Assembly (NCBI GenBank): GCA_965658655.1
Contig: CBFHTA010000002.1
Span: 12,334 to 76,333 of the forward strand
Length of the DNA stretch: 64,000 bases
Direction of reading: 5' to 3'
From: Candidatus Babelota bacterium
GTDB lineage: Bacteria; Babelota; Babeliae; Babelales; CAIQNR01
Shown here one piece after another: positions 30,107 through 38,973 of this stretch. The stretch's first letter is position 1. Every line of letters begins with the position of its first letter. A program made the translations under genes and the position numbers. Below the pieces are notes generated by a model. It saw only the letters and a program-made list of their open reading frames with translations, made no database searches and had not been told where the DNA came from.

Positions 30107-32872
30107 ATGTCAGCCGAAAAGGCCCAAGAAAAATTACCAAAGGGTATCAAACCAGTCCTCATTGAAGATGAGCTTAAGAGTTCGTTTTTAGATTACGCCA
30201 TGTCTGTGGTAGTAAGTCGTGCAATTCCAGATATTCGTGATGGCCTTAAGCCAGTACATAGGCGTGTTTTGTACGCTATGTATGAGCTTGGTTATCATTT
30301 TAATAAGCCCTACAGGAAATCTGTACGTGTAGTTGGTGATGTACTTGGTAAGTATCATCCACATGGTGATCAGGCAGTATATAATACTATGGTTGGTATG
30401 GTGCAAGACTTCGCGAAACGTTATCCATTGTTAGATGGTCAGGGTAACTGGGGTTCAGTTGATGGTGACAACGCAGCTGCTATGCGTTATACCGAAGTGA
30501 GAATGAAAAAAATTACGCAAGAAATTCTTGCAGATATCGACAAAAATACTGTTCAGTTTGTACCAAACTTTGATGAATCAACAACTGAACCAGTTATTTT
30601 ACCAAGTCGATTGCCAAACCTATTAATCAATGGAACAGCCGGTATTGCGGTTGGTATGGCAACTAATATTCCACCGCATAATTTGGGTGAAGTAATAGAT
30701 GCATGCTTGGCATTACTTAAAGATGAAAATCTTACATTCGAAGAACTTATTAAATTAGTTCCTGCACCAGATTTTCCTACTGGCGGTATTATTTGTGGTC
30801 GCGGCGGTGTGCTTCAAGCGTACAAAACCGGTCGCGGTAAGGTTATGGTTCGTGGTGTAACAGCTATTGAAGAAACCAAAAAAGGTGGCTCTGCAATTGT
30901 TATTACTGAGCTTCCTTACCAGGTAAATAAAGCAGAACTTATTATTAAGACTGCAGATTTAGTAAAAAATAAAATTATCGAAGGTATTTCTAATATTCGT
31001 GATGAGTCAGACAGACGTGGTATGCGTGTGGTTATAGACATTAAACGCGGTGAAATTCCTGATGTGGTTCTAAATCAACTGTATAAGTATACTTCGCTTC
31101 AAACATCGCTTTCTATTTTGATGCTTGGGTTGCTAGATAACAAACCAATGGTATTTACGCTCAAAGAACTTATTAAGCAGTTCTTGTTGCATAGAGAAAC
31201 GGTTGTGTATCGAAGAACTAAGTATGAACTTGATAAGGCAAAGTCTCGAGAGCATCTTTTAGAAGGTTTTATTATTGCGCTTGATAATATTGACGCAGTA
31301 GTTCAACATATTAAAAAATCTAAAGCAGCTGACGAAGCAATAGCAATTTTGGTTAAAGAATACAAGCTTTCAGAAGAGCAAAGTAAAGCGATTCTTGAAA
31401 TGCGCTTGCAACGTTTGACTGGTTTGGAACAGCAAAAAATTCATAACGAAATTACAGAAATTAAAAAACGCATTGAGTATTTAATGTCTGTATTGCAAGA
31501 TCGAGAAGTTCTTAAAAAAGAAATTGAAGTTGAGCTTAATGAAGTTAAAGCTACGTACGACAACCCAAGACGTACTGTGATTGAAGATAGCTTTACCTCA
31601 TTAACCGATGAAGATTTAATTCCTGATGAAGACGTGGTCGTAACTTTAACTCAAAAAGGTTATGTAAAACGTGTTGGCCTTGAAAACTACGGTGTGCAGC
31701 ATCGTGGTGGTAAAGGTAAAATGGGTATGCAAAAGCTTGACGACAACGATGATGTTGTACGCGATATGTTTGTTGCAAAATCTCATGACGAATTGCTCTT
31801 CTTTACGAGTCTTGGTCGTGTTTACAGTATGCGTGTATATGAAGTTGGTGAAGGTTCTCGTACTTCAAAAGGACGTGCAGTTATTAACTTGCTGCCGTTG
31901 GTAGAGGGTGAATCTGTAGTAAGATTACTTTGTATGCGAGACATGAAAGATAAAAATATTGTGATGGTTACCAAGAAAGGTATCATCAAAAAAACCGATG
32001 CGAAGTCGTTTGCAAAGATTCGTGTGTCAGGTATTCGTGCTCTTGGTCTTAGAGAAGATGACGCACTTTCATTCTGTGGTGTTTCTTCTGGGCAAGATGA
32101 CATTGTTATTGCAACAGCATTTGGTCAGGGCATTAGATTCAATGAAAAAGAAGTACGTGCAATGGGTCGTCAGGCAGCAGGGGTTATTGGTATTCGCCTA
32201 AGAGAAGGTGACTCTGTTGTTGGGATGGAAATCATTGACGACGAAAATAAAAATATTTTGTTTGCAACACAAAATGGTTACGGAAAGCGTACACGTGTAG
32301 GAGACTTCCGTGTGGCTCATCGTGGTGGTTTGGGTGTTCGAACAATCCCAACAGATCGTCGTAATGGTGAGGTTGTTGGGTTGGTTATTGTTAGTGAAAC
32401 GTCTCATATTCTCCTCATCGATGATGCAGGGAAAATTATTCATCTGCTTCCAACCGAAGTTCGTACCATGGGAAGACAGGCTAAAGGGGTTCGCCTTATT
32501 CGTCTTGATTCTGGGCGACGATTGATTTCGATTGCAGCATTTGATGAAGATGAAGACTCAGATTCTGAAGTAAGCTCAAGTGAAGGAGGGTCAGGTGGTG
32601 ACAAACCTGAAACTAAAGCACAAGACGCAGCAGGGTCGCAAGAAGTAAAGGGTGCGATAAAGGCGTCTGAACAAGAAGAACCAGTTGCAGAAATTTCTGA
32701 AGAAGGTACAATTGTTATAGGTGCGAAGGAAGAAATAAGTAATGAACCTGAGAAAGCTGTAATGGCTGACCCTCAGGATGGAACAAAAATTTCAGCAGCG
32801 GCAACGTTGCTTGAAGATGAAATGAATGATACATCGTCGTTTGACAATAGTGATCAGACGATGATTTTTTAA
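30107..32872 (+). CDS. gyrA: DNA gyrase subunit A
   Basis: GKYHPHGD, AAMRYTE, GyrA-box QHRGGKG, long acidic tail. Confidence 0.98.
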   Translation: MSAEKAQEKLPKGIKPVLIEDELKSSFLDYAMSVVVSRAIPDIRDGLKPVHRRVLYAMYELGYHFNKPYRKSVRVVGDVLGKYHPHGDQAVYNTMVGMVQDFAKRYPLLDGQGNWGSVDGDNAAAMRYTEVRMKKITQEILADIDKNTVQFVPNFDESTTEPVILPSRLPNLLINGTAGIAVGMATNIPPHNLGEVIDACLALLKDENLTFEELIKLVPAPDFPTGGIICGRGGVLQAYKTGRGKVMVRGVTAIEETKKGGSAIVITELPYQVNKAELIIKTADLVKNKIIEGISNIRDESDRRGMRVVIDIKRGEIPDVVLNQLYKYTSLQTSLSILMLGLLDNKPMVFTLKELIKQFLLHRETVVYRRTKYELDKAKSREHLLEGFIIALDNIDAVVQHIKKSKAADEAIAILVKEYKLSEEQSKAILEMRLQRLTGLEQQKIHNEITEIKKRIEYLMSVLQDREVLKKEIEVELNEVKATYDNPRRTVIEDSFTSLTDEDLIPDEDVVVTLTQKGYVKRVGLENYGVQHRGGKGKMGMQKLDDNDDVVRDMFVAKSHDELLFFTSLGRVYSMRVYEVGEGSRTSKGRAVINLLPLVEGESVVRLLCMRDMKDKNIVMVTKKGIIKKTDAKSFAKIRVSGIRALGLREDDALSFCGVSSGQDDIVIATAFGQGIRFNEKEVRAMGRQAAGVIGIRLREGDSVVGMEIIDDENKNILFATQNGYGKRTRVGDFRVAHRGGLGVRTIPTDRRNGEVVGLVIVSETSHILLIDDAGKIIHLLPTEVRTMGRQAKGVRLIRLDSGRRLISIAAFDEDEDSDSEVSSSEGGSGGDKPETKAQDAAGSQEVKGAIKASEQEEPVAEISEEGTIVIGAKEEISNEPEKAVMADPQDGTKISAAATLLEDEMNDTSSFDNSDQTMIF

Positions 32873-32896
32873 TCTCTTTTGTAAGGATACGAACGT

Positions 32897-33199
32897 ATGA
32901 AATTGTACGTAGGAAACTTGAGCTTTAACTTGTCAGATAACGATCTTAAAGCAAAATTTGAAGAATTTGGTGCAGTTGAATCTGCTAACATTATTACAGA
33001 TCGTGAAACTGGCCGCTCTAAGGGTTTTGGTTTCGTTGAAATGGTTGACGCTGCTAATGCACAAGAAGCTATTGCACAACTTAACGGTTCTGACTACGAA
33101 GGCCGTAAAGTAATCGTTAACGAAGCTCGTCCTCGTCCAGAACGTACTGGTGGTGGCAGCCGTGGTCCACGTGGTGGAAATGGCGGAGGTCGCTGGTAG
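32897..33199 (+). CDS. RRM-domain RNA-binding protein
   Basis: RNP2 LYVGNL, RNP1 KGFGFVEM, Gly/Arg tail. Confidence 0.95.
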   Translation: MKLYVGNLSFNLSDNDLKAKFEEFGAVESANIITDRETGRSKGFGFVEMVDAANAQEAIAQLNGSDYEGRKVIVNEARPRPERTGGGSRGPRGGNGGGRW

Positions 33200-33229
33200 T
33201 CTGTTTTCAGATTAACTTCGATTTTAAAG

Positions 33230-33258
33230 AAAAGGGTGTCTTCAAGGCACCCTTTTTT
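33230..33258 (+). terminator. Rho-independent terminator
   Basis: AAAAGGGTGTC-TTCAA-GGCACCCTTTTTT. Confidence 0.8.
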
Positions 33259-33272
33259 AATGGAATACATAT

Positions 33273-33635
33273 ATGAAAAATTTTTTTTTAATTGTTTTTC
33301 TAATTGTTTGTTTTTCTCTCTATGGTAACGACCAATTACTTGATGCAGTTAATTCTGTTCGTTTAAAAATTGCTTTAGATAATTTAAACCGATTCTGTGA
33401 AAACATAGAAATGGGAATTAATATAGTGATTACAACTGCTGGCATACTTACCTATAGAGAATTAAGACCAAAATTTTTTTGGGGTAAATACCCGGTATCG
33501 GCAGCTTTATTGCTGACATTCTTGTTAGGAGCAGGGTTGCATGGAGCGTTGCATCTTTATAAAGGCGCAGAAGCTAAAAAAATTACACAAAAAACTCTGA
33601 AATCTGATTTTTCTTTATGTACAAACAACAATTAG
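33273..33635 (+). CDS. Small secreted/membrane hypothetical protein
   Basis: Signal peptide plus two hydrophobic segments; overlaps dprA start. Confidence 0.65.
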   Translation: MKNFFLIVFLIVCFSLYGNDQLLDAVNSVRLKIALDNLNRFCENIEMGINIVITTAGILTYRELRPKFFWGKYPVSAALLLTFLLGAGLHGALHLYKGAEAKKITQKTLKSDFSLCTNNN

Positions 33636-34717
33636 TTCTACATCTTTCTTTAATTGCATCAGTTGGCCCAGATAAAATAGGCAAGCTGGTAAAAGTTCTT
33701 AAAAAAGAAAAAAATCCTGCTAGCTGGTATGCTTATCGGCAACAAGATTTTATGCGTTTAGGGATGACAGCACGGAATGCTCAAACCATTGTTGCGGGTC
33801 TTGCCAATGCGCAAATTCTTAAAGAAGAATTAGAACTTATCGAAAAATATGCGATTAACTGGACCACGATTTTAGATGCTGATTACCCAGCACTTTTAAA
33901 AGAAATTCATACTCCGCCTGCAGTTTTGTATTGGCGAGGAGAACCGGTGTGGCAAACCACAGAAAAAACAGTTGCATTTGTTGGCGCGCGTAAAGGTACG
34001 GCATATGGTCAGAGAGTCGTTAACGCTGTTATTCCAACTTTGGTTGCGGCAGGATACACTATTGTTTCTGGAGGTGCTTATGGTATCGATACTATGGCTC
34101 ATCGAGCTACCCTTGAATGTGGTGGAAAAACAATTGTGGTGATTGGTGCAGGTCTTTTAATCCCGTATTTGGCTGGTAATCAAAAGCTATTTGAGCAAGC
34201 GGCATCTGCAGGAAGTGTTGTAGTCAGTGCTTTTCCATTGATGCACGGTGCTGATAAATGGACATTTCCGGTACGTAATAGAATTATTGCTGGGTTGTCT
34301 CAAGGCTGTGTGGTGGTGCAAGCGGCTAAGAAAAGTGGTGCTTTGATCACCTCAAGTTATGCCTTACAAGAAGGTAGACAGGTCTTTGCAGTACCCGGAC
34401 CGTTTGATGATGAGCTAAGCGTAGGATGCCTAAATTTGATCAAGCAGGGCGCAAAAGTGGTGTGTAGTGCTCAAGACGTCTTAGAAGAATTTGGAGCTCA
34501 AGAAGAGATTTTTGAGCAAATAGAGATCTCTACGGTTGAAGCGCCTAAGCAAAAATTAGACAATTCTATTTTAGTCCATTGCGCTCAACCAATAAGTTTA
34601 TCTGAGCTTATTCAAAAAACAGGCTTAGAAGAAAATAAGCTTAAACAGGATCTTTTTGATCTTCAATTAGATGGCAAAATAGAGCAAGATTTTGCCGGTC
34701 TATGGAAGCTGCTTTAA
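33617..34717 (+). CDS. dprA: DNA-processing protein DprA
   Basis: VSGGAYGIDT.AH, FPVRNRIIAGLS, SGALIT, GR.VFAVPG; C-terminal winged helix. Confidence 0.96.
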   Translation: MYKQQLVLHLSLIASVGPDKIGKLVKVLKKEKNPASWYAYRQQDFMRLGMTARNAQTIVAGLANAQILKEELELIEKYAINWTTILDADYPALLKEIHTPPAVLYWRGEPVWQTTEKTVAFVGARKGTAYGQRVVNAVIPTLVAAGYTIVSGGAYGIDTMAHRATLECGGKTIVVIGAGLLIPYLAGNQKLFEQAASAGSVVVSAFPLMHGADKWTFPVRNRIIAGLSQGCVVVQAAKKSGALITSSYALQEGRQVFAVPGPFDDELSVGCLNLIKQGAKVVCSAQDVLEEFGAQEEIFEQIEISTVEAPKQKLDNSILVHCAQPISLSELIQKTGLEENKLKQDLFDLQLDGKIEQDFAGLWKLL

Positions 34718-34800
34718 GTTTAAAACCTTGACCTGTTGAGGTTTTGGTTTGTGTTGCTACAATTATAAGTAGTATTTTAAGTGGATTTCTGGAGGTTGTT

Positions 34801-34999
34801 GTGAAAAAAAAACTAATATTTTTTATTTTTTCGACCTGAAGATGATTTGCGTGAGTTAAATAAATTAGCTGAGACACAAGAAAAGATTGCTAAAGAGAAA
34901 AGAGAGTTTTATGAAAATTTATCTCGCGAATCTCTTAAGCTTATGAGAGAGAGAGAAGGAATAACTGAGGAAGAGTGGAATAAAAAGTATGGCAAATAA
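34801..34999 (+). pseudogene. Broken small secreted-protein gene behind dprA
   Basis: GTG start MKKKLIFFIFST* matches the start of 35744 (MKQKLILYIFSS); continues out of frame as PEDDLRELNKLAETQ...KKYGK*. Confidence 0.55.
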
Positions 35000-35031
35000 G
35001 TTAGTCTAAAAATTGATTTTGAAAGGTTATT

Positions 35032-35400
35032 ATGAAAAAGTTTTTATTATTGACGCTAATATTATTTGGGAGTGTGTTTGCCAATATGAAACAAAATGCA
35101 TTTAAAGAAAAGATGATACAAGAAGCCGAAAAGGAAATGTTTTGTGCTGAAAAAGATTTAAACAAATCTCGAATAAAAAGATCTTTAGTGGCCACTTTTG
35201 GACTGTTGCTTATGATAGCATCTCTAGATAGTCATTTAAAGAATCATGATAATATTACGGGGCCAGTTTTGATGGGTCTAGTGGGTCTAGGAAATAGTCT
35301 TTTTCGATTTGAGCTAGAGTGGTTTATAAATAAGAAAAGTTATAGTAATGCAAATCGAGCTTTAATCAATGTTTTACGTAAAGTTGATGAGCAAAAATAA
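35032..35400 (+). CDS. Small secreted protein with hydrophobic hairpin
   Basis: Signal peptide MKKFLLLTLILFGSVFA, charged helix, two hydrophobic segments. Confidence 0.7.
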   Translation: MKKFLLLTLILFGSVFANMKQNAFKEKMIQEAEKEMFCAEKDLNKSRIKRSLVATFGLLLMIASLDSHLKNHDNITGPVLMGLVGLGNSLFRFELEWFINKKSYSNANRALINVLRKVDEQK

Positions 35401-35457
35401 TTATTGTTATAAGGTTATTTAAGAAGACCAGTTTTAGGGTTGCACCCGACTTTTTTA

Positions 35458-35664
35458 AAATAGAGATCTCTACGGTTGAAGCGCCTAAGCAAAAATTAGA
35501 CAATTCTATTTTAGTTCATTGCGCTCAACCAATAAGTTTATCTGAGCTTATTCAAAAAACAGGCTTAGAAGAAAACAAGCTTAAACAGGATCTTTTTGAT
35601 CTTCAATTAGATGGTGAAATACAGCAAGACTTTGCCGGCTTATGGCAAGTGGTTAAAACCTTGA
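35458..35664 (+). repeat. Second copy of the dprA 3' end
   Basis: Matches 34518 onward with only 2 mismatches in the first 157 bp; similarity continues through promoter, RBS and signal-peptide codons to ~35777. Confidence 0.95.
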
Positions 35665-35743
35665 AATCCCACTCTAGTTGAGTTATTTCTCTTTTTTTGC
35701 TATAATTTTATAAGTTTAAATTAAATGACTTCTGGGGGTTGTT

Positions 35744-36136
35744 GTGAAACAAAAACTTATACTTTATATTTTTTCGAGTTTATTTTTAGGGTTGCACCCA
35801 AGTAATTCTTTTTTTGATAATGAGTTGAGTCGTACAGAAAAATATATTTCATTTTTAAAGTATAAAGAGTCGCAGCTAAGAGAAAAAGAGAAAGGAATTA
35901 AAACAAATTTAATGTTGCAATTCCAAAAAAACTTACAAAATATTACTATGGGGCCACCGAGACAATTAGGTTTAGTAAGGATGATTAGTTTAGCTTCTTT
36001 TTTAGTGAATTATGTGCCGGCTACTGTGCATTTAAGTTTGACTTATACTGATAACAAGACCACTCAAAAAGAGTTGTCTACCTGTAAAAATTACTCTGAC
36101 ATGCTTAAATCATTAAATAAATCTTTTATTGCATAA
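35744..36136 (+). CDS. Small secreted hypothetical protein
   Basis: GTG start, signal peptide, coiled coil and hydrophobic segment. Confidence 0.7.
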   Translation: MKQKLILYIFSSLFLGLHPSNSFFDNELSRTEKYISFLKYKESQLREKEKGIKTNLMLQFQKNLQNITMGPPRQLGLVRMISLASFLVNYVPATVHLSLTYTDNKTTQKELSTCKNYSDMLKSLNKSFIA

Positions 36137-36151
36137 GTTGGAAATTTTTTG

Positions 36152-36390
36152 CTTAGAAGAGTTTGGAGCTTAAGAGGAGGTTTTGGAGCAAATAGAGATC
36201 TCTAGGTTTGAAGCTCCTAAGGCAAAAGCAGACAATTCTATTTTTAGTTCACTGGGTTCAACTTATAAGTCAGTCTTGACTCATTTAAAAAACAGTCTTA
36301 AAAGAAAGTAAGCTTAAACAGGATCTTTTTGATCTTCAATTGGATGGTAAAATACAGCACGACTCCGCAGGTTTATGGCAGCTTACTTGA
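36152..36390 (+). pseudogene. Third, decayed copy of the dprA 3' end
   Basis: CTTAGAAGAGTTTGGAGCT...AAATAGAGATCTCTA...AAGCTTAAACAGGATCTTTTTGATCTTCAATT matches 34480..34717 with indels and stops. Confidence 0.9.
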
Positions 36391-36499
36391 AGCCCTTTGT
36401 TTTTTTGCCTTTTCCGTTTATTTTGCTATAATTATCCTATCTATTAGGCGCCTAAGGCGTCATTTCTATTAAAGATTTTAGGCTACCAAGGAGTTTGTC

Positions 36500-36793
36500 A
36501 TGCCAGTACCAAAGAGAAAAAGATCTCGTCAGAGAAGAGATAAGCGTTTTGCTAACAAAGGCGTTAAAGTTCGTTCTATTTCAAGCTGTACCAACTGTTC
36601 AGAAGCTGTGTCTTCTCATACAGCGTGTATGTCTTGTGGATTTTATAAAGGCCGCAAAGTGTTAGCTACTAAGTCTGACCGTTCAGTTCGACGTGCAGAT
36701 GAGCGCAAAGAAAAAGAAGGAAAACAAGAAGCATTACGACAAAAGCTTGAAGCTCAAGCAGCTCCAATTGAAGAGCCAAAAAAAGCTGAGTAA
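36500..36793 (+). CDS. rpmF: 50S ribosomal protein L32 with C-terminal extension
   Basis: MPVPKRKRSR, CxxC...CxxCGFYKGR. Confidence 0.93.
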   Translation: MPVPKRKRSRQRRDKRFANKGVKVRSISSCTNCSEAVSSHTACMSCGFYKGRKVLATKSDRSVRRADERKEKEGKQEALRQKLEAQAAPIEEPKKAE

Positions 36794-36840
36794 TCTTTTG
36801 TTTGAGTAGTATGAAGAAAAAACTATAGAGATCGTTCGTA

Positions 36841-37542
36841 GTGAGGATGAGCATGATACAAGCATTAGTCAAAGATTGGTACCGCGAAATTGTTGAAGAT
36901 AAGTATTCACTTGCTTTAACCGTAGTAATAATTTGTGGTGGCGCCTATTGGGGTGGTAGCGAGTTACGTTTGCGCTACAAAAAACACGTGGGTGGAAAAT
37001 CACAGATTGTTGTTGCAGAAGCGATAGAAGAGTATGACAAAGCTTTATATAACCATCTTGAAAAAGAGGGTGGACAAGAACTTGCGTCGCAACAATTTGA
37101 TGATGTTCAAATTGGTTTTGATACTATTTTAAAACAACATAGTGGTTCTTCGTTGGTTCCGTATGCTCTTTCGTTTCAAGCAGATACGTTTGCTTTAAAG
37201 GGTGACTTTAAACAAGCGCTTATTACTTTAGAGGATGGTATTAAAAAAATGTCTTCTTCTGCTCCTGGTTATTACTTACTCAAAACTAAATATGCGCTTT
37301 TACAACTTGATGCTCAACAAGAAACAGAAGGTGTTGCCTTACTGCGTGAACTTGCTTTTAATTCAAGTAATCCAACGTTTGATACAGCTGCCTTTTTCTT
37401 AGGTTACTACTACTGGGCTAAGCACGATAAAGATAAAGCTCGTGATGCTTGGAAGCAACTAGAAACAACAGAAAATAGTAAGTCTAAAAAGGGTGCATCT
37501 CCTTGGTTGCAAGCGGTAAAAGAAAAGCTTCAAAACGTTTAG
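36841..37542 (+). CDS. Membrane-anchored TPR-like protein (YfgM-like)
   Basis: One N-terminal TM followed by TPR-like helices (AAFFLGYYYW...ARDAWKQL). Confidence 0.6.
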   Translation: MRMSMIQALVKDWYREIVEDKYSLALTVVIICGGAYWGGSELRLRYKKHVGGKSQIVVAEAIEEYDKALYNHLEKEGGQELASQQFDDVQIGFDTILKQHSGSSLVPYALSFQADTFALKGDFKQALITLEDGIKKMSSSAPGYYLLKTKYALLQLDAQQETEGVALLRELAFNSSNPTFDTAAFFLGYYYWAKHDKDKARDAWKQLETTENSKSKKGASPWLQAVKEKLQNV

Positions 37543-37551
37543 GAATACGTA

Positions 37552-38973
37552 GTGGCAGATACTAATGTGCGAGTAAGGTTTGCGCCTTCTCCTACGGGAA
37601 ATCTTCATGTGGGCGGTCTACGGACGGCCCTTTTTAATTGGTTATTCGCAAAACATAATAATGGTATGTTCTTAATTCGTGTAGAAGATACAGATAAAGA
37701 ACGCTCTAAAGTAGAACACATGCACGCGCAACTTCAAGCGCTTGATTGGGTTGGTATTAAGAGTGACGAAAAACCGTTATTGCAATCTGAACGTTCTGAA
37801 GTTTATAACAAAATCCTTGTACAGCTATTGGAAGAAAAAAAGATCTATCGTTGCACCTGTAGGCCAGAAGAAATCGAAGAACGGGTTCGTGCAGCGGGTA
37901 TTACCGGAGATCATTATGGTTACGATAGTTTTTGTCGAGATAAAGATCGTCAAGGGCATAGAGATAGACCATCGGTACTTCGCTTTGCACTTCCAGAAGC
38001 TTTTAATGAACTTACCATTAACGATCTTATTCGTGGCAAAGTAACGTTCAAGCGTGAACAGTTAGATGACTTTATTATTGTTCGTTCAGATGGCAGTCCA
38101 ACGTATAACTTTGTGGTAGTTGTTGACGATTATGCTTCAGGTATTTCGCATGTTATTCGTGGAGAAGACCATCTTTCTAATACACCTAAACAGATTTTAT
38201 TGTATGAAGCATGTGGGTACGATTTGCCTAAGTTTGCTCATATCCCGATGATTCTAGGGCCAGAGGGAAACAGGTTGAGTAAGCGTGATGGTGCAGTTAA
38301 TGTGCTTGCCTATCGTGAGGCTGGGTATTTACCTGATGCACTCTTGAATTACATGGTTCGTCTTGGGTGGTCACATGGCGATAAAGAGATTTTTACAAAT
38401 CAAGAATTAATAGATTTATTCTCACTTAAAGCGGTAGGAAAAAAGGCTGCTATTTTTGATTATGCAAAATTAGAGTGGGTTAACAGCGTGTACATGCAAG
38501 AAGCATCTAGTAGTTCTTTGCTAGAGGTTATTGCAGAATATATTGACCTAGAGTGGCGTAATAAGGTACAACAATGGACTGATGCACAGATTGCACAAGC
38601 CATTGAAATGTATAAAGGACGTGTAAAAACAGTCGGCCATCTCGCTCAAGTATTAGTTGAACTTTACAACGGTCCATCTGAATATGCTAAAGAGGATATT
38701 GGTAAGTGGATGACAACCACCGCATGCGGATTGCTTGATCGTTTGATCCTTGTTCTAGAAGAGTATGATTTTGAAAAAGAGTCTCTTAAAGAAGTGGTAA
38801 AAGCATTTTGCAAAGAGCACGAAATAAAGTTGGTAGTTATTGCACAACCAACTCGCATAGCGCTTACCGGCGGTACTATGAGCCCAGGGGTATTTGACCT
38901 GCTTATTTTGTTCGGTAAAGAAGAAAGTATTACACGCCTTAAAGCTTTACAGAGGTTTTTAGAAAAAAAATAA
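37552..38973 (+). CDS. gltX: Glutamate--tRNA ligase
   Basis: RFAPSPTGNLHVGG, HVIRGEDH, LSKR. Confidence 0.97.
   Translation: MADTNVRVRFAPSPTGNLHVGGLRTALFNWLFAKHNNGMFLIRVEDTDKERSKVEHMHAQLQALDWVGIKSDEKPLLQSERSEVYNKILVQLLEEKKIYRCTCRPEEIEERVRAAGITGDHYGYDSFCRDKDRQGHRDRPSVLRFALPEAFNELTINDLIRGKVTFKREQLDDFIIVRSDGSPTYNFVVVVDDYASGISHVIRGEDHLSNTPKQILLYEACGYDLPKFAHIPMILGPEGNRLSKRDGAVNVLAYREAGYLPDALLNYMVRLGWSHGDKEIFTNQELIDLFSLKAVGKKAAIFDYAKLEWVNSVYMQEASSSSLLEVIAEYIDLEWRNKVQQWTDAQIAQAIEMYKGRVKTVGHLAQVLVELYNGPSEYAKEDIGKWMTTTACGLLDRLILVLEEYDFEKESLKEVVKAFCKEHEIKLVVIAQPTRIALTGGTMSPGVFDLLILFGKEESITRLKALQRFLEKK

Follow-up and report, generated by a model that had tools for sequence, protein, structure and literature searches.

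In the model published for Rhs loci, homologous recombination that involves circular intermediates lets acquired alternatives take the place of resident gene tips (PMC2935791, a work also cited in PMC3150448). The tandem lpl paralogs of Staphylococcus aureus are described as having an evolutionary unit made of the 3′ part of one open reading frame (ORF), the intergenic DNA together with the 5′ part of the next ORF (Tsuru and Kobayashi 2008; PMC2568036). In Streptococcus pneumoniae, transformation creates tandem duplications of 100–900 kb between insertion sequence copies (PMC3784515). Here we describe a locus in which the 3′ end of a housekeeping gene, dprA, occurs three times with small secreted-protein genes between the copies. 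It lies in a 64,000-nt stretch of Candidatus Babelota DNA (hereafter the window; assembly GCA_965658655.1, contig CBFHTA010000002.1, positions 12,334 to 76,333). Positions below are those of the window unless a contig is named, and all features of the array are on the forward strand (+). On balance, and with modest confidence, we read this array as what is left of at least three local rearrangements, nested one in another, that needed no dedicated recombinase, and as one of several such junctions in the genome.

The dprA gene itself is intact (33617–34717, 366 aa; PF02481, E = 7e-69) and has full-length matches in relatives. Its last 200–239 nt are present three times in direct orientation. 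Copy 1 (34479–34717) lies within the live gene and encodes residues ~288–366. Copy 2 (35458–35664), delimited by repeat alignment and BLAST, is an untranslated fossil with the tail ..DGEIQQDFAGLWQVV. Copy 3 (36152–36390), whose start corresponds to dprA nt 34479, is decayed. In ungapped register, with 34518–34717 as the reference, 35458–35657 is 94% identical and 36191–36390 is 66% identical. When gaps are allowed, the identity of copy 3 rises to 82.8% against copy 1 (232 nt aligned) and is 83.2% against copy 2 (191 nt aligned). Copy 1 falls into two parts. Positions 34518–34674 are nearly identical to copy 2, with 2 mismatches in 157, both at synonymous third positions (34576, GTC/GTT; 34636, AAT/AAC), and 34675–34717 form a diverged tail in which 11 of 43 ungapped positions differ. 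Copy 2 is open for 73 codons in the dprA frame and contains no listed ORF of at least 30 aa with an ATG, GTG or TTG start, while copy 3 is interrupted by a TAA in frame and by one or more frameshifts. The three ends code for one and the same DprA C-terminus, not for alternative tips. A BLAST search with 34480–34840 against the whole genome (928,713 bp in 4 contigs, 95% complete) found this sequence nowhere beyond the three copies, the next match having E = 0.08.

The homology runs beyond the dprA stop codon. Each unit has its own homologous extended −10 promoter, predicted by consensus match: P1 (34736–34763, TTGAGG-16-TACAAT with TG), P2 (35678–35706, TTGAGT-17-TATAAT with TG) and P3 (36405–36432, TTGCCT-16-TATAAT with TG), the last being the resident promoter of rpmF and conserved in the sister species. 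As the promoter scan was not enriched overall (12 sites versus 10.3±3.1 in shuffles), the argument for these promoters comes from their homologous positions and not from the number of sites. Units 1 and 2 also share a ribosome-binding site (RBS) and the first 11–12 signal-peptide codons (51 nt, 88%). In unit 2 these codons begin sp2 (35744–36136), an orphan gene for 130 aa with a GTG start behind GGGGG, a signal peptide and a hydrophobic segment. In unit 1 they form a stub (34801–34839) of 12 codons followed by TGA (34837–34839), whose homology to the start of sp2 stops at 34834. From there a 595-nt insert (34835–35429, GC 30.8%), delimited by sequence comparison and the ORF list, holds o50, a 50-aa ORF (34847–34999; its frame is open from 34817 and out of frame with the stub), and sp1 (35032–35400), an orphan gene for 122 aa with a signal peptide and a hydrophobic hairpin. 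Copy 2 is preceded by a joint (35430–35457) that consists of a 16-nt tag, TTTTAGGGTTGCACCC (35432–35447), which equals sp2 codons 14–19, and ~10 nt of filler. An exact match to this tag exists at just two places in the window, 35432 and, within sp2, 35784–35799, and 0 of 100 shuffles gave two matches, even with one mismatch allowed. Behind copy 3 and P3 lies rpmF (36500–36793; ribosomal protein L32, PF01783, E = 1e-18).

Much of this anatomy had been noted in a preliminary description of the window made from its sequence alone, and here the alignments and the genome search agree with it. It had listed three direct copies of the dprA end, a second copy that stays open with only two synonymous mismatches in 157, a frameshifted third copy beside rpmF, homology of copies 1 and 2 past the stop codon into the promoter, RBS and ~12 signal-peptide codons, differing small secreted-protein genes between the copies (sp1 and sp2, with signal peptides predicted from sequence), and a tag that recurs inside the next cargo gene.

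In relatives the junction of dprA and rpmF is simpler. We detected DprA in 39 of the 41 genomes searched, and rpmF follows dprA in 21 of 29 relatives' loci, with a gap of at most 162 nt in 14 of the 21 and of 217–711 nt in the other 7. The rpmF promoter of relatives stands immediately behind the dprA stop codon, as it does behind copy 3. The T-rich stretch TTTTTTTGCC..TATAAT is found both behind copy 3 and before rpmF of the sister species (G001, DprA 70% identical, the sole closely related genome in the comparison), with two to three base differences. Since the same promoter stretch occupies both places, copy 3, P3 and rpmF together are the ancestral junction. The 29 relatives' dprA loci, the locus described here set aside, contain no repeat of the dprA end. 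At this junction the sister species carries an unrelated 124-aa gene (signal peptide, hydrophobic segments) in a 613-nt gap, with no dprA-end repeat. The same junction thus occurs with other cargo or with none, as the preliminary description had envisaged, and its proposal that older ends lie downstream also fits, the most decayed copy being the one that adjoins rpmF and keeps the ancestral dprA-stop/rpmF-promoter arrangement.

Several observations concern the wider set of dprA loci. Two loci from another family, L025 (G040) and L038 (G020), have a secreted 146–156-aa gene between dprA and rpmF, and the two proteins are alike. In L019 (2599–3308, genome G003), 710 nt separate the two genes, with no ORF of at least 50 aa and no Rfam match at the gathering score; Rfam searches of four relatives' loci gave no gathering-level match. 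Named DprA homologs (44–48% identity) come from Candidatus Babeliales or Dependentiae, which makes it probable that the genome described here belongs to that phylum. DprA proteins 73–82% identical exist (P0002–P0007), on contigs of 2.6–57 kb. The closest metagenome contig match was 46% identical (33 loci), and a search of genome contigs for closer dprA loci (29 loci) returned only the sister-species contig, at 68%. On that contig (L072), dprA, rpmF and a TPR gene are 68–81% identical to the window genes; its public title names a gammaproteobacterium, which seems at odds with the gene content.

The anatomy of the array, its ancestral state, the lineage-specific insertions and the mosaic divergence described below are observed, while the following order of events, and the enzymes behind it, are inferred. 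In an old event (A), the orphan gene sp2 would have been placed between two copies of a ~285-nt junction segment, made up of the last 239 nt of dprA (from 34479) and the rpmF promoter to ~3 nt past its −10 box; homology between units 2 and 3 stops at 35707/36433. Such an event would leave dprA whole, let rpmF keep its promoter and give sp2 a copy of that promoter. Next (B), a stretch of ~342 nt, reaching from dprA nt 34518 to sp2 codon 19 (present-day 35458–35799), would have been duplicated in tandem, giving the second fossil end, the second promoter and the dead signal-peptide stub. Finally (C), a 595-nt piece with the o50 stub and sp1 would have been inserted into this dead stub, or else the 595-nt block would be part of a replacement patch. 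Candidate routes are RecA-dependent insertion-duplication, or replication slippage or template switching followed by illegitimate insertion into the neutral duplicate.

Step B rests on the tag. As the last piece of the shared unit, it stands ~10 nt before copy 2 as well as inside sp2, so that for units 1 and 2 the end of one unit is fused to the start of the next, and this argues for a head-to-tail duplication. The signal-peptide homology stops at 34834 and resumes at 35430, and the 595 nt therefore lie inside the stub. As the stub contributes only 11 signal-peptide codons, too few for a working signal peptide, its joint with o50 is not that of a native gene, and we take the block to have been inserted later or to belong to a replacement patch. 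The preliminary description had derived the copy 1/copy 2 pair from an incoming cassette with cargo 1 as part of it; the tag shows instead a local tandem duplication of resident DNA reaching into sp2, and cargo 1 sits inside the duplicated stub as a separate 595-nt insert. The contents of the units are not those of a plain tandem array: sp1 and sp2 are not detectably related, the 595-nt block and mature sp2 have no DNA similarity, and unit 3 has rpmF in the place of sp2.

The divergence between units 1 and 2 is mosaic. They differ in 2 of 156 columns in the first part and in 54 of 164 in the tail, promoter, RBS and stub (Fisher p = 7e-16), which makes the second part ~33% diverged. Private differences of the three units number 12, 10 and 13 in the tail and promoter and 1, 1 and 24 in the first part. 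The live tail, ..GKIEQDFAGLWKLL, has 5–6 states in its last 15 codons that are absent from copy 2, copy 3 and the sister species, and copy 2 has 1–2 such private states; DprA proteins of relatives mostly end in ..IQQDFAGLWQxx. Two readings would accommodate this. The duplication may be old, with gene conversion having homogenised the first 157 nt. By our own arithmetic, a perfect tag would then be a 0.3–3% coincidence at 20–30% divergence. Alternatively the duplication may be recent, the diverged tail, P1 and stub having been imported with the 595-nt block as a 756-nt patch (34674–35429). The shape of such a patch, homologous at its left end and not at its right, would be that of homology-facilitated illegitimate recombination. 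The private states of the live tail and the lack of another genomic dprA tail favour the second reading; since the genome has no other copy of the dprA end, the diverged tail does not come from elsewhere in it.

An imported patch comes close to a different account of the whole array, in which the dprA tail of a relative, together with a promoter, a signal-peptide start and cargo, repeatedly recombines into the locus and pushes the resident end downstream. The left join of each such event would be homologous and the right one illegitimate (or made through a circular intermediate), and competence genes could feed the uptake. Import of a 3′ tail, promoter and cargo, which the preliminary description had suggested, is allowed by the mosaic, with a unit 1 tail, P1 and stub ~33% diverged between a flanking 157 nt and a tag that are identical or nearly so, by the excess of unshared states in the live copy over copy 2, and by the lack of a second genomic dprA that could supply the divergent tail. 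Serial displacement would also fit the downstream position of fossils that keep ancestral junctions, here and at another junction described below, the other cargo that the sister species carries at the same junctions, the presence of ComEC-like, DprA and RecA genes, and the Rhs precedent of homologous recombination by way of circular intermediates (PMC2935791). However, the asymmetric divergence of the copies that had been expected is not seen, as the relative-rate count in the tail and promoter is symmetric (12 versus 10, p = 0.83). The tag marks a resident duplication reaching sp2, the stub–o50 joint (11 signal-peptide codons, o50 out of frame) is not native, and no donor allele was found in the contig and protein searches, sp1 and sp2 themselves being without relatives among 5.8 billion proteins. 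A further locus, uvrA, has its more derived copy in the displaced position. We consider serial displacement possible but doubtful.

The nested local rearrangements that we prefer have difficulties of their own. The three units are about equidistant in the tail and promoter, a pattern not expected of a simple duplication, whether young or old. If B was old, the 16/16 identity of the tag is unexpected; if it was recent, the 33% divergence needs an imported patch, which is nearer the model of the preliminary description. Mature sp1 and sp2 show a weak similarity (Smith-Waterman z = 3.2, 4/500 shuffles) that leaves room for homologous cargo. The order A to C is a parsimony reading, made with one close relative at 70% DprA identity and with no event caught in action. 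Finally, neither event A nor the uvrA, rluB and SPOR loci introduced below show a leftover of an intermediate duplication, and at these places insertion and target duplication in a single step would be just as possible.

The layout of a gene end, one or more inserted genes and a fossil of the same end recurs at four further housekeeping junctions of this genome. These came from a comparison of the genome with itself in 10-kb windows, which gave 41 filtered repeat rows, 19 of which we annotated along with 16 partly overlapping candidates; greedily chosen ORFs cover 91% of the genome. At uvrA, a 74-nt repeat (93%; contig C2, 214398–214471 and 212534–212607) surrounds a gene for a 555-aa ankyrin-repeat protein. 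In the sister species this gene is missing and the homolog of the next gene stands directly behind uvrA, so the downstream neighbour is the same gene in both. The fossil, and not the copy within the gene, is the more derived one (4 sites versus 1), which does not support the model of the preliminary description. Behind an rluB-like gene, a 36-nt repeat (100%) together with the stop region serves again as the 3′ end of a 560-aa gene, which the sister-species locus lacks. Between a SPOR-domain gene and a SurA-like gene, a 43-nt repeat (84%) that includes the RBS surrounds a gene for 69 aa. In all 11 relatives' loci that have both the SPOR-domain and the SurA-like gene, the pair stands close together without an insert, and in the sister species, the one junction of these read at sequence level, the stop codon overlaps the start codon. 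The dprA/rpmF, uvrA, rluB and SPOR/SurA junctions are uninterrupted in relatives, and wherever a comparison could be made (dprA/rpmF and SPOR/SurA) it is the downstream fossil that keeps the ancestral junction.

The fourth junction is the convergent pair rpsT/PBP (contig C1, 516181–519176; sister species, L140 283–1570). Its 72-nt repeat (92%) spans the rpsT stop codon, the shared terminator and the PBP end, and its cargo is a gene for a secreted toxin with an Ntox37 domain and a 97-aa ORF, a putative immunity gene. The sister species has its own 95-nt duplication (89.5%) here, around an unrelated secreted 328-aa gene. Within either species the two copies have states in common that are specific to it, which points to independent events or concerted evolution. 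A locus with a P-loop gene (contig C4, 34761–35152) has the same layout; we did not count it as a housekeeping junction, the gene being found in 0 of 15 family genomes.

We ran an identical scan on 760 kb of a member of another genus of the same family (G004). It gave 18 filtered pairs and no gene-end fossil behind an inserted gene; the pairs were tRNA genes, internal repeats and tandem paralogs sharing promoter and signal-peptide starts. Two candidates there were rejected, one (C1, 397676–398122) being an internal Ser/Thr-rich repeat with masked bases and the other, a 79-nt repeat pair, two tRNA genes. The dprA array is the only stacked case of this gain of genes by junction duplication, a mode that appears to be enriched in the genus. 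The preliminary description had linked the array to the function of DprA in transformation. As the layout recurs at uvrA, rluB, rpsT/PBP and SPOR/SurA, that role looks incidental.

What enzymes could act on the array? The genome contains two tyrosine recombinases, matched best by the models for XerD and XerC, and neither lies beside the array; against the integron-integrase model TIGR02249 they score 131.5 and 119.3 bits, compared to a cut-off of 265. No match to Resolvase, RVT_1, rve or DDE_Tnp_1 was found in the genome, and so the array does appear free of an integrase, as the preliminary description had said. Its likeness to an integron did not hold up. Six 150-nt stretches of units 2 and 3, folded as single-stranded DNA, gave no single long hairpin of the attC type (z-scores −1.5, −0.1, −2.5, +0.3, −0.5 and 0.05), and there is no single Pc promoter, each unit having its own, and no IntI beside the array. 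The array is not an integron analogue in mechanism. RecA, DprA and a ComEC-family ORF are present, and DNA uptake by this bacterium may be possible.

Integrative elements commonly integrate at the 3′ ends of genes and supply a replacement gene end. The repeats could therefore be attL/attR-like remnants of islands or prophages that have since lost the integrase and most of the island, and direct repeats flanking accessory cargo are what such remnants would leave. However, only small ORFs without Pfam matches lie between the dprA repeats, the cargo measures 0.3–1.8 kb with no phage or plasmid gene at the five junctions, and the repeats, up to ~285 nt long, run into promoters, a terminator or the next signal peptide and have no short core. 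The Xer-like pair are the only tyrosine recombinases and there is no serine recombinase; at 95% completeness, a missed integrase is possible but unlikely. We regard an origin from islands as improbable.

Could the array have been assembled in error, the dprA–rpmF alleles of two strains having been stitched in tandem through the shared 157-nt repeat? We searched Logan contigs of run X1, which hold 97% of the sampled words of the stretch and may come from the source sample. The repeat collapses there into one contig (35458–35575) of double depth (22.6 versus about 9–11), these contigs do not phase entry to and exit from it, and it is the original assembly that carries the phase across the 157-nt repeat. 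Every unique junction is nonetheless bridged with 0 differences, by contigs covering 33500–34547, 34645–35487, 35585–36338 and 36312–37000 onward at similar depths (9.1, 11.6, 7.9 and 9.85). A single 843-nt contig runs through the copy 1 tail, cargo 1, tag, filler and 30 nt of copy 2, so a second dprA end truly stands behind cargo 1, and a 754-nt contig connects the copy 2 tail, sp2 and copy 3, which has itself diverged too far to result from a collapse. Identical pieces also came from two more runs of the study to which X1 belongs. An artefact thus seems very improbable. The contigs showed no joints, although contigs cannot reveal rare deletions or circles.

Run X4, from a different study, has contigs 85–91% alike to parts of the window within 34369–35645 and 36409–36917. 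They match the dprA end, 34900–35039 (in a 1787-nt contig with unlike flanks), a second dprA-end-like piece with unlike flanks, and rpmF. This run may contain a relative with o50-like sequence and more than one dprA-end copy; the matches are too weak to bear on copy number or habitat and were not used for either.

The cargo genes have no known relatives in the collections searched. Both sp1 and sp2 have a signal-peptide-like start, a central hydrophobic segment and an RBS-like motif, and each matched only itself among 5.8 billion proteins; an exhaustive phmmer search of 1.84 billion representatives also returned sp1 alone. We did not find sp2 in 15 family genomes, Pfam gave only sub-threshold matches for the cargo ORFs, and Atlas gave no usable match for sp2 and matches of 0.88 or less for sp1, with low recognition scores for both (2189 for sp1 and 1646 for sp2). 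Their GC contents (30.9% for sp1, 28.8% for sp2) compare with a genome mean of 37.1% and a 5th percentile of 30.2% among 194 ORFs of comparable size. Both genes may be young or may evolve fast. An Rfam search of 32000–38000 (E ≤ 1) gave only STnc390 (E = 0.86, 20 bits versus a gathering score of 50).

Upstream of dprA, a 120-aa ORF, sp0 (33273–33635), with a signal peptide and two hydrophobic segments, lies between an RRM-protein gene and dprA, whose start it overlaps by 19 nt. It has no flanking duplication, was not found by tblastn in 29 relatives' loci, and is another lineage-specific small gene at the dprA locus. We rejected the idea that a duplication of sp0 and dprA as a whole, followed by loss of the 5′ part of the second dprA, had produced sp2. 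The proteins sp0 and sp2 have z = 1.3 in full and 0.8 in their mature parts, and their genes are not similar at the DNA level, whereas the dprA fossil next to sp2 has kept 83% identity.

Other repeats were seen in the genome. In many tandem pairs of signal-peptide genes, nothing but the upstream region and first codons is shared, and the mature parts differ (contig C1, 215691–216581, 351697–352663, 193199–194001, 427317–428126 and 409163–410000; contig C2, 150690–153381); one pair shares 54 nt at 100%, and such pairs also occur in G004. A 616-nt repeat (95%; window 24794–25409 and 25502–26117) lies inside a 1710-aa minus-strand ORF (C2, 34642–39774). An 82-nt direct repeat (79%; C4, 29683–29764 and 30593–30674) covers a region past the 3′ end of one gene and the 5′ end of its divergent neighbour. 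At C2, 209137–211733, a gene for a 521-aa protein with a bacterial EndoU nuclease domain at its C-terminus stands before a 146-aa ORF and an EndoU fragment of 141 aa, in which 222 nt of the toxin gene are repeated (80%). The arrangement resembles a polymorphic-toxin locus that has an orphan tip.

We suggest, tentatively and with considerable doubt, that this genus of host-dependent bacteria with reduced genomes may gain accessory genes, such as those for orphan secreted proteins, ankyrin proteins and toxin-immunity pairs, without a recombinase, by insertion of an incoming or relocated gene at a housekeeping 3′ end together with a copy of that end and of the expression signal of the neighbour. 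Repeated use of one junction would build arrays, and the process would run on homologous recombination and DNA uptake and extend beyond toxin genes. In a compact genome that shares promoters, overlapping stop and start codons and terminators, nearly any insertion should do harm. Duplication of the junction spares both neighbours and gives the newcomer a promoter or RBS, and a dead duplicate is a safe landing site for the next insertion. If general in the lineage, such events would leave datable footprints of gene gain in uncultured intracellular bacteria, be a source of orphan secreted proteins, and allow a test of whether the competence genes that reduced genomes retain do feed gene acquisition. 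If only ordinary segmental duplication is at work, the locus is a clean worked example and no new system. A limited search of the literature on Dependentiae gene transfer and on illegitimate recombination with duplication, which is not proof of absence, turned up no gene-end fossils at housekeeping junctions.

Among described systems, the lpl unit matches the span shared by copies 1 and 2, which likewise comprises the 3′ end of a gene (here dprA), an intergenic promoter with its RBS, and the opening codons of the gene behind it. The lpl system involves paralogs recombining at a central conserved region, whereas at dprA a housekeeping gene present in one copy lies upstream and the cargo proteins are not detectably related. 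In Campbell-type insertion-duplication, as here, an insert is flanked by direct repeats of the target, the site in relatives is uninterrupted, and recombination of the RecA type is sufficient. Compared with the S. pneumoniae duplications, the repeats here are 43–285 nt long and sit at gene ends, and no donor circle or repeat-bearing donor is known. Like integron arrays, the dprA locus accumulates small genes serially at one site, with older ones further from the point of entry; unlike them, it has no IntI, attI, attC or common Pc, its repeats are copies of the target, and each unit has its own promoter. The closest layout is that of Rhs/CdiA loci, where a live gene is followed by displaced 3′ ends, each with a stub of the gene, and by cargo between them, much as copies 2 and 3 retain 200–239 nt of dprA; the proposed driver there is also homologous recombination with no dedicated integrase (PMC2935791). 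The EndoU locus described above is an example of such a layout in this genome. Unlike Rhs/CdiA ends, those of the dprA array belong to a housekeeping protein and encode the same domain instead of non-homologous tips, the orphan signal-peptide cargo is not tied to the end as a cognate immunity gene would be, and the repeated segment includes the promoter, RBS or terminator of a neighbour. If it does operate, the route suggested here would resemble integron cassette capture or Rhs tip displacement in function.

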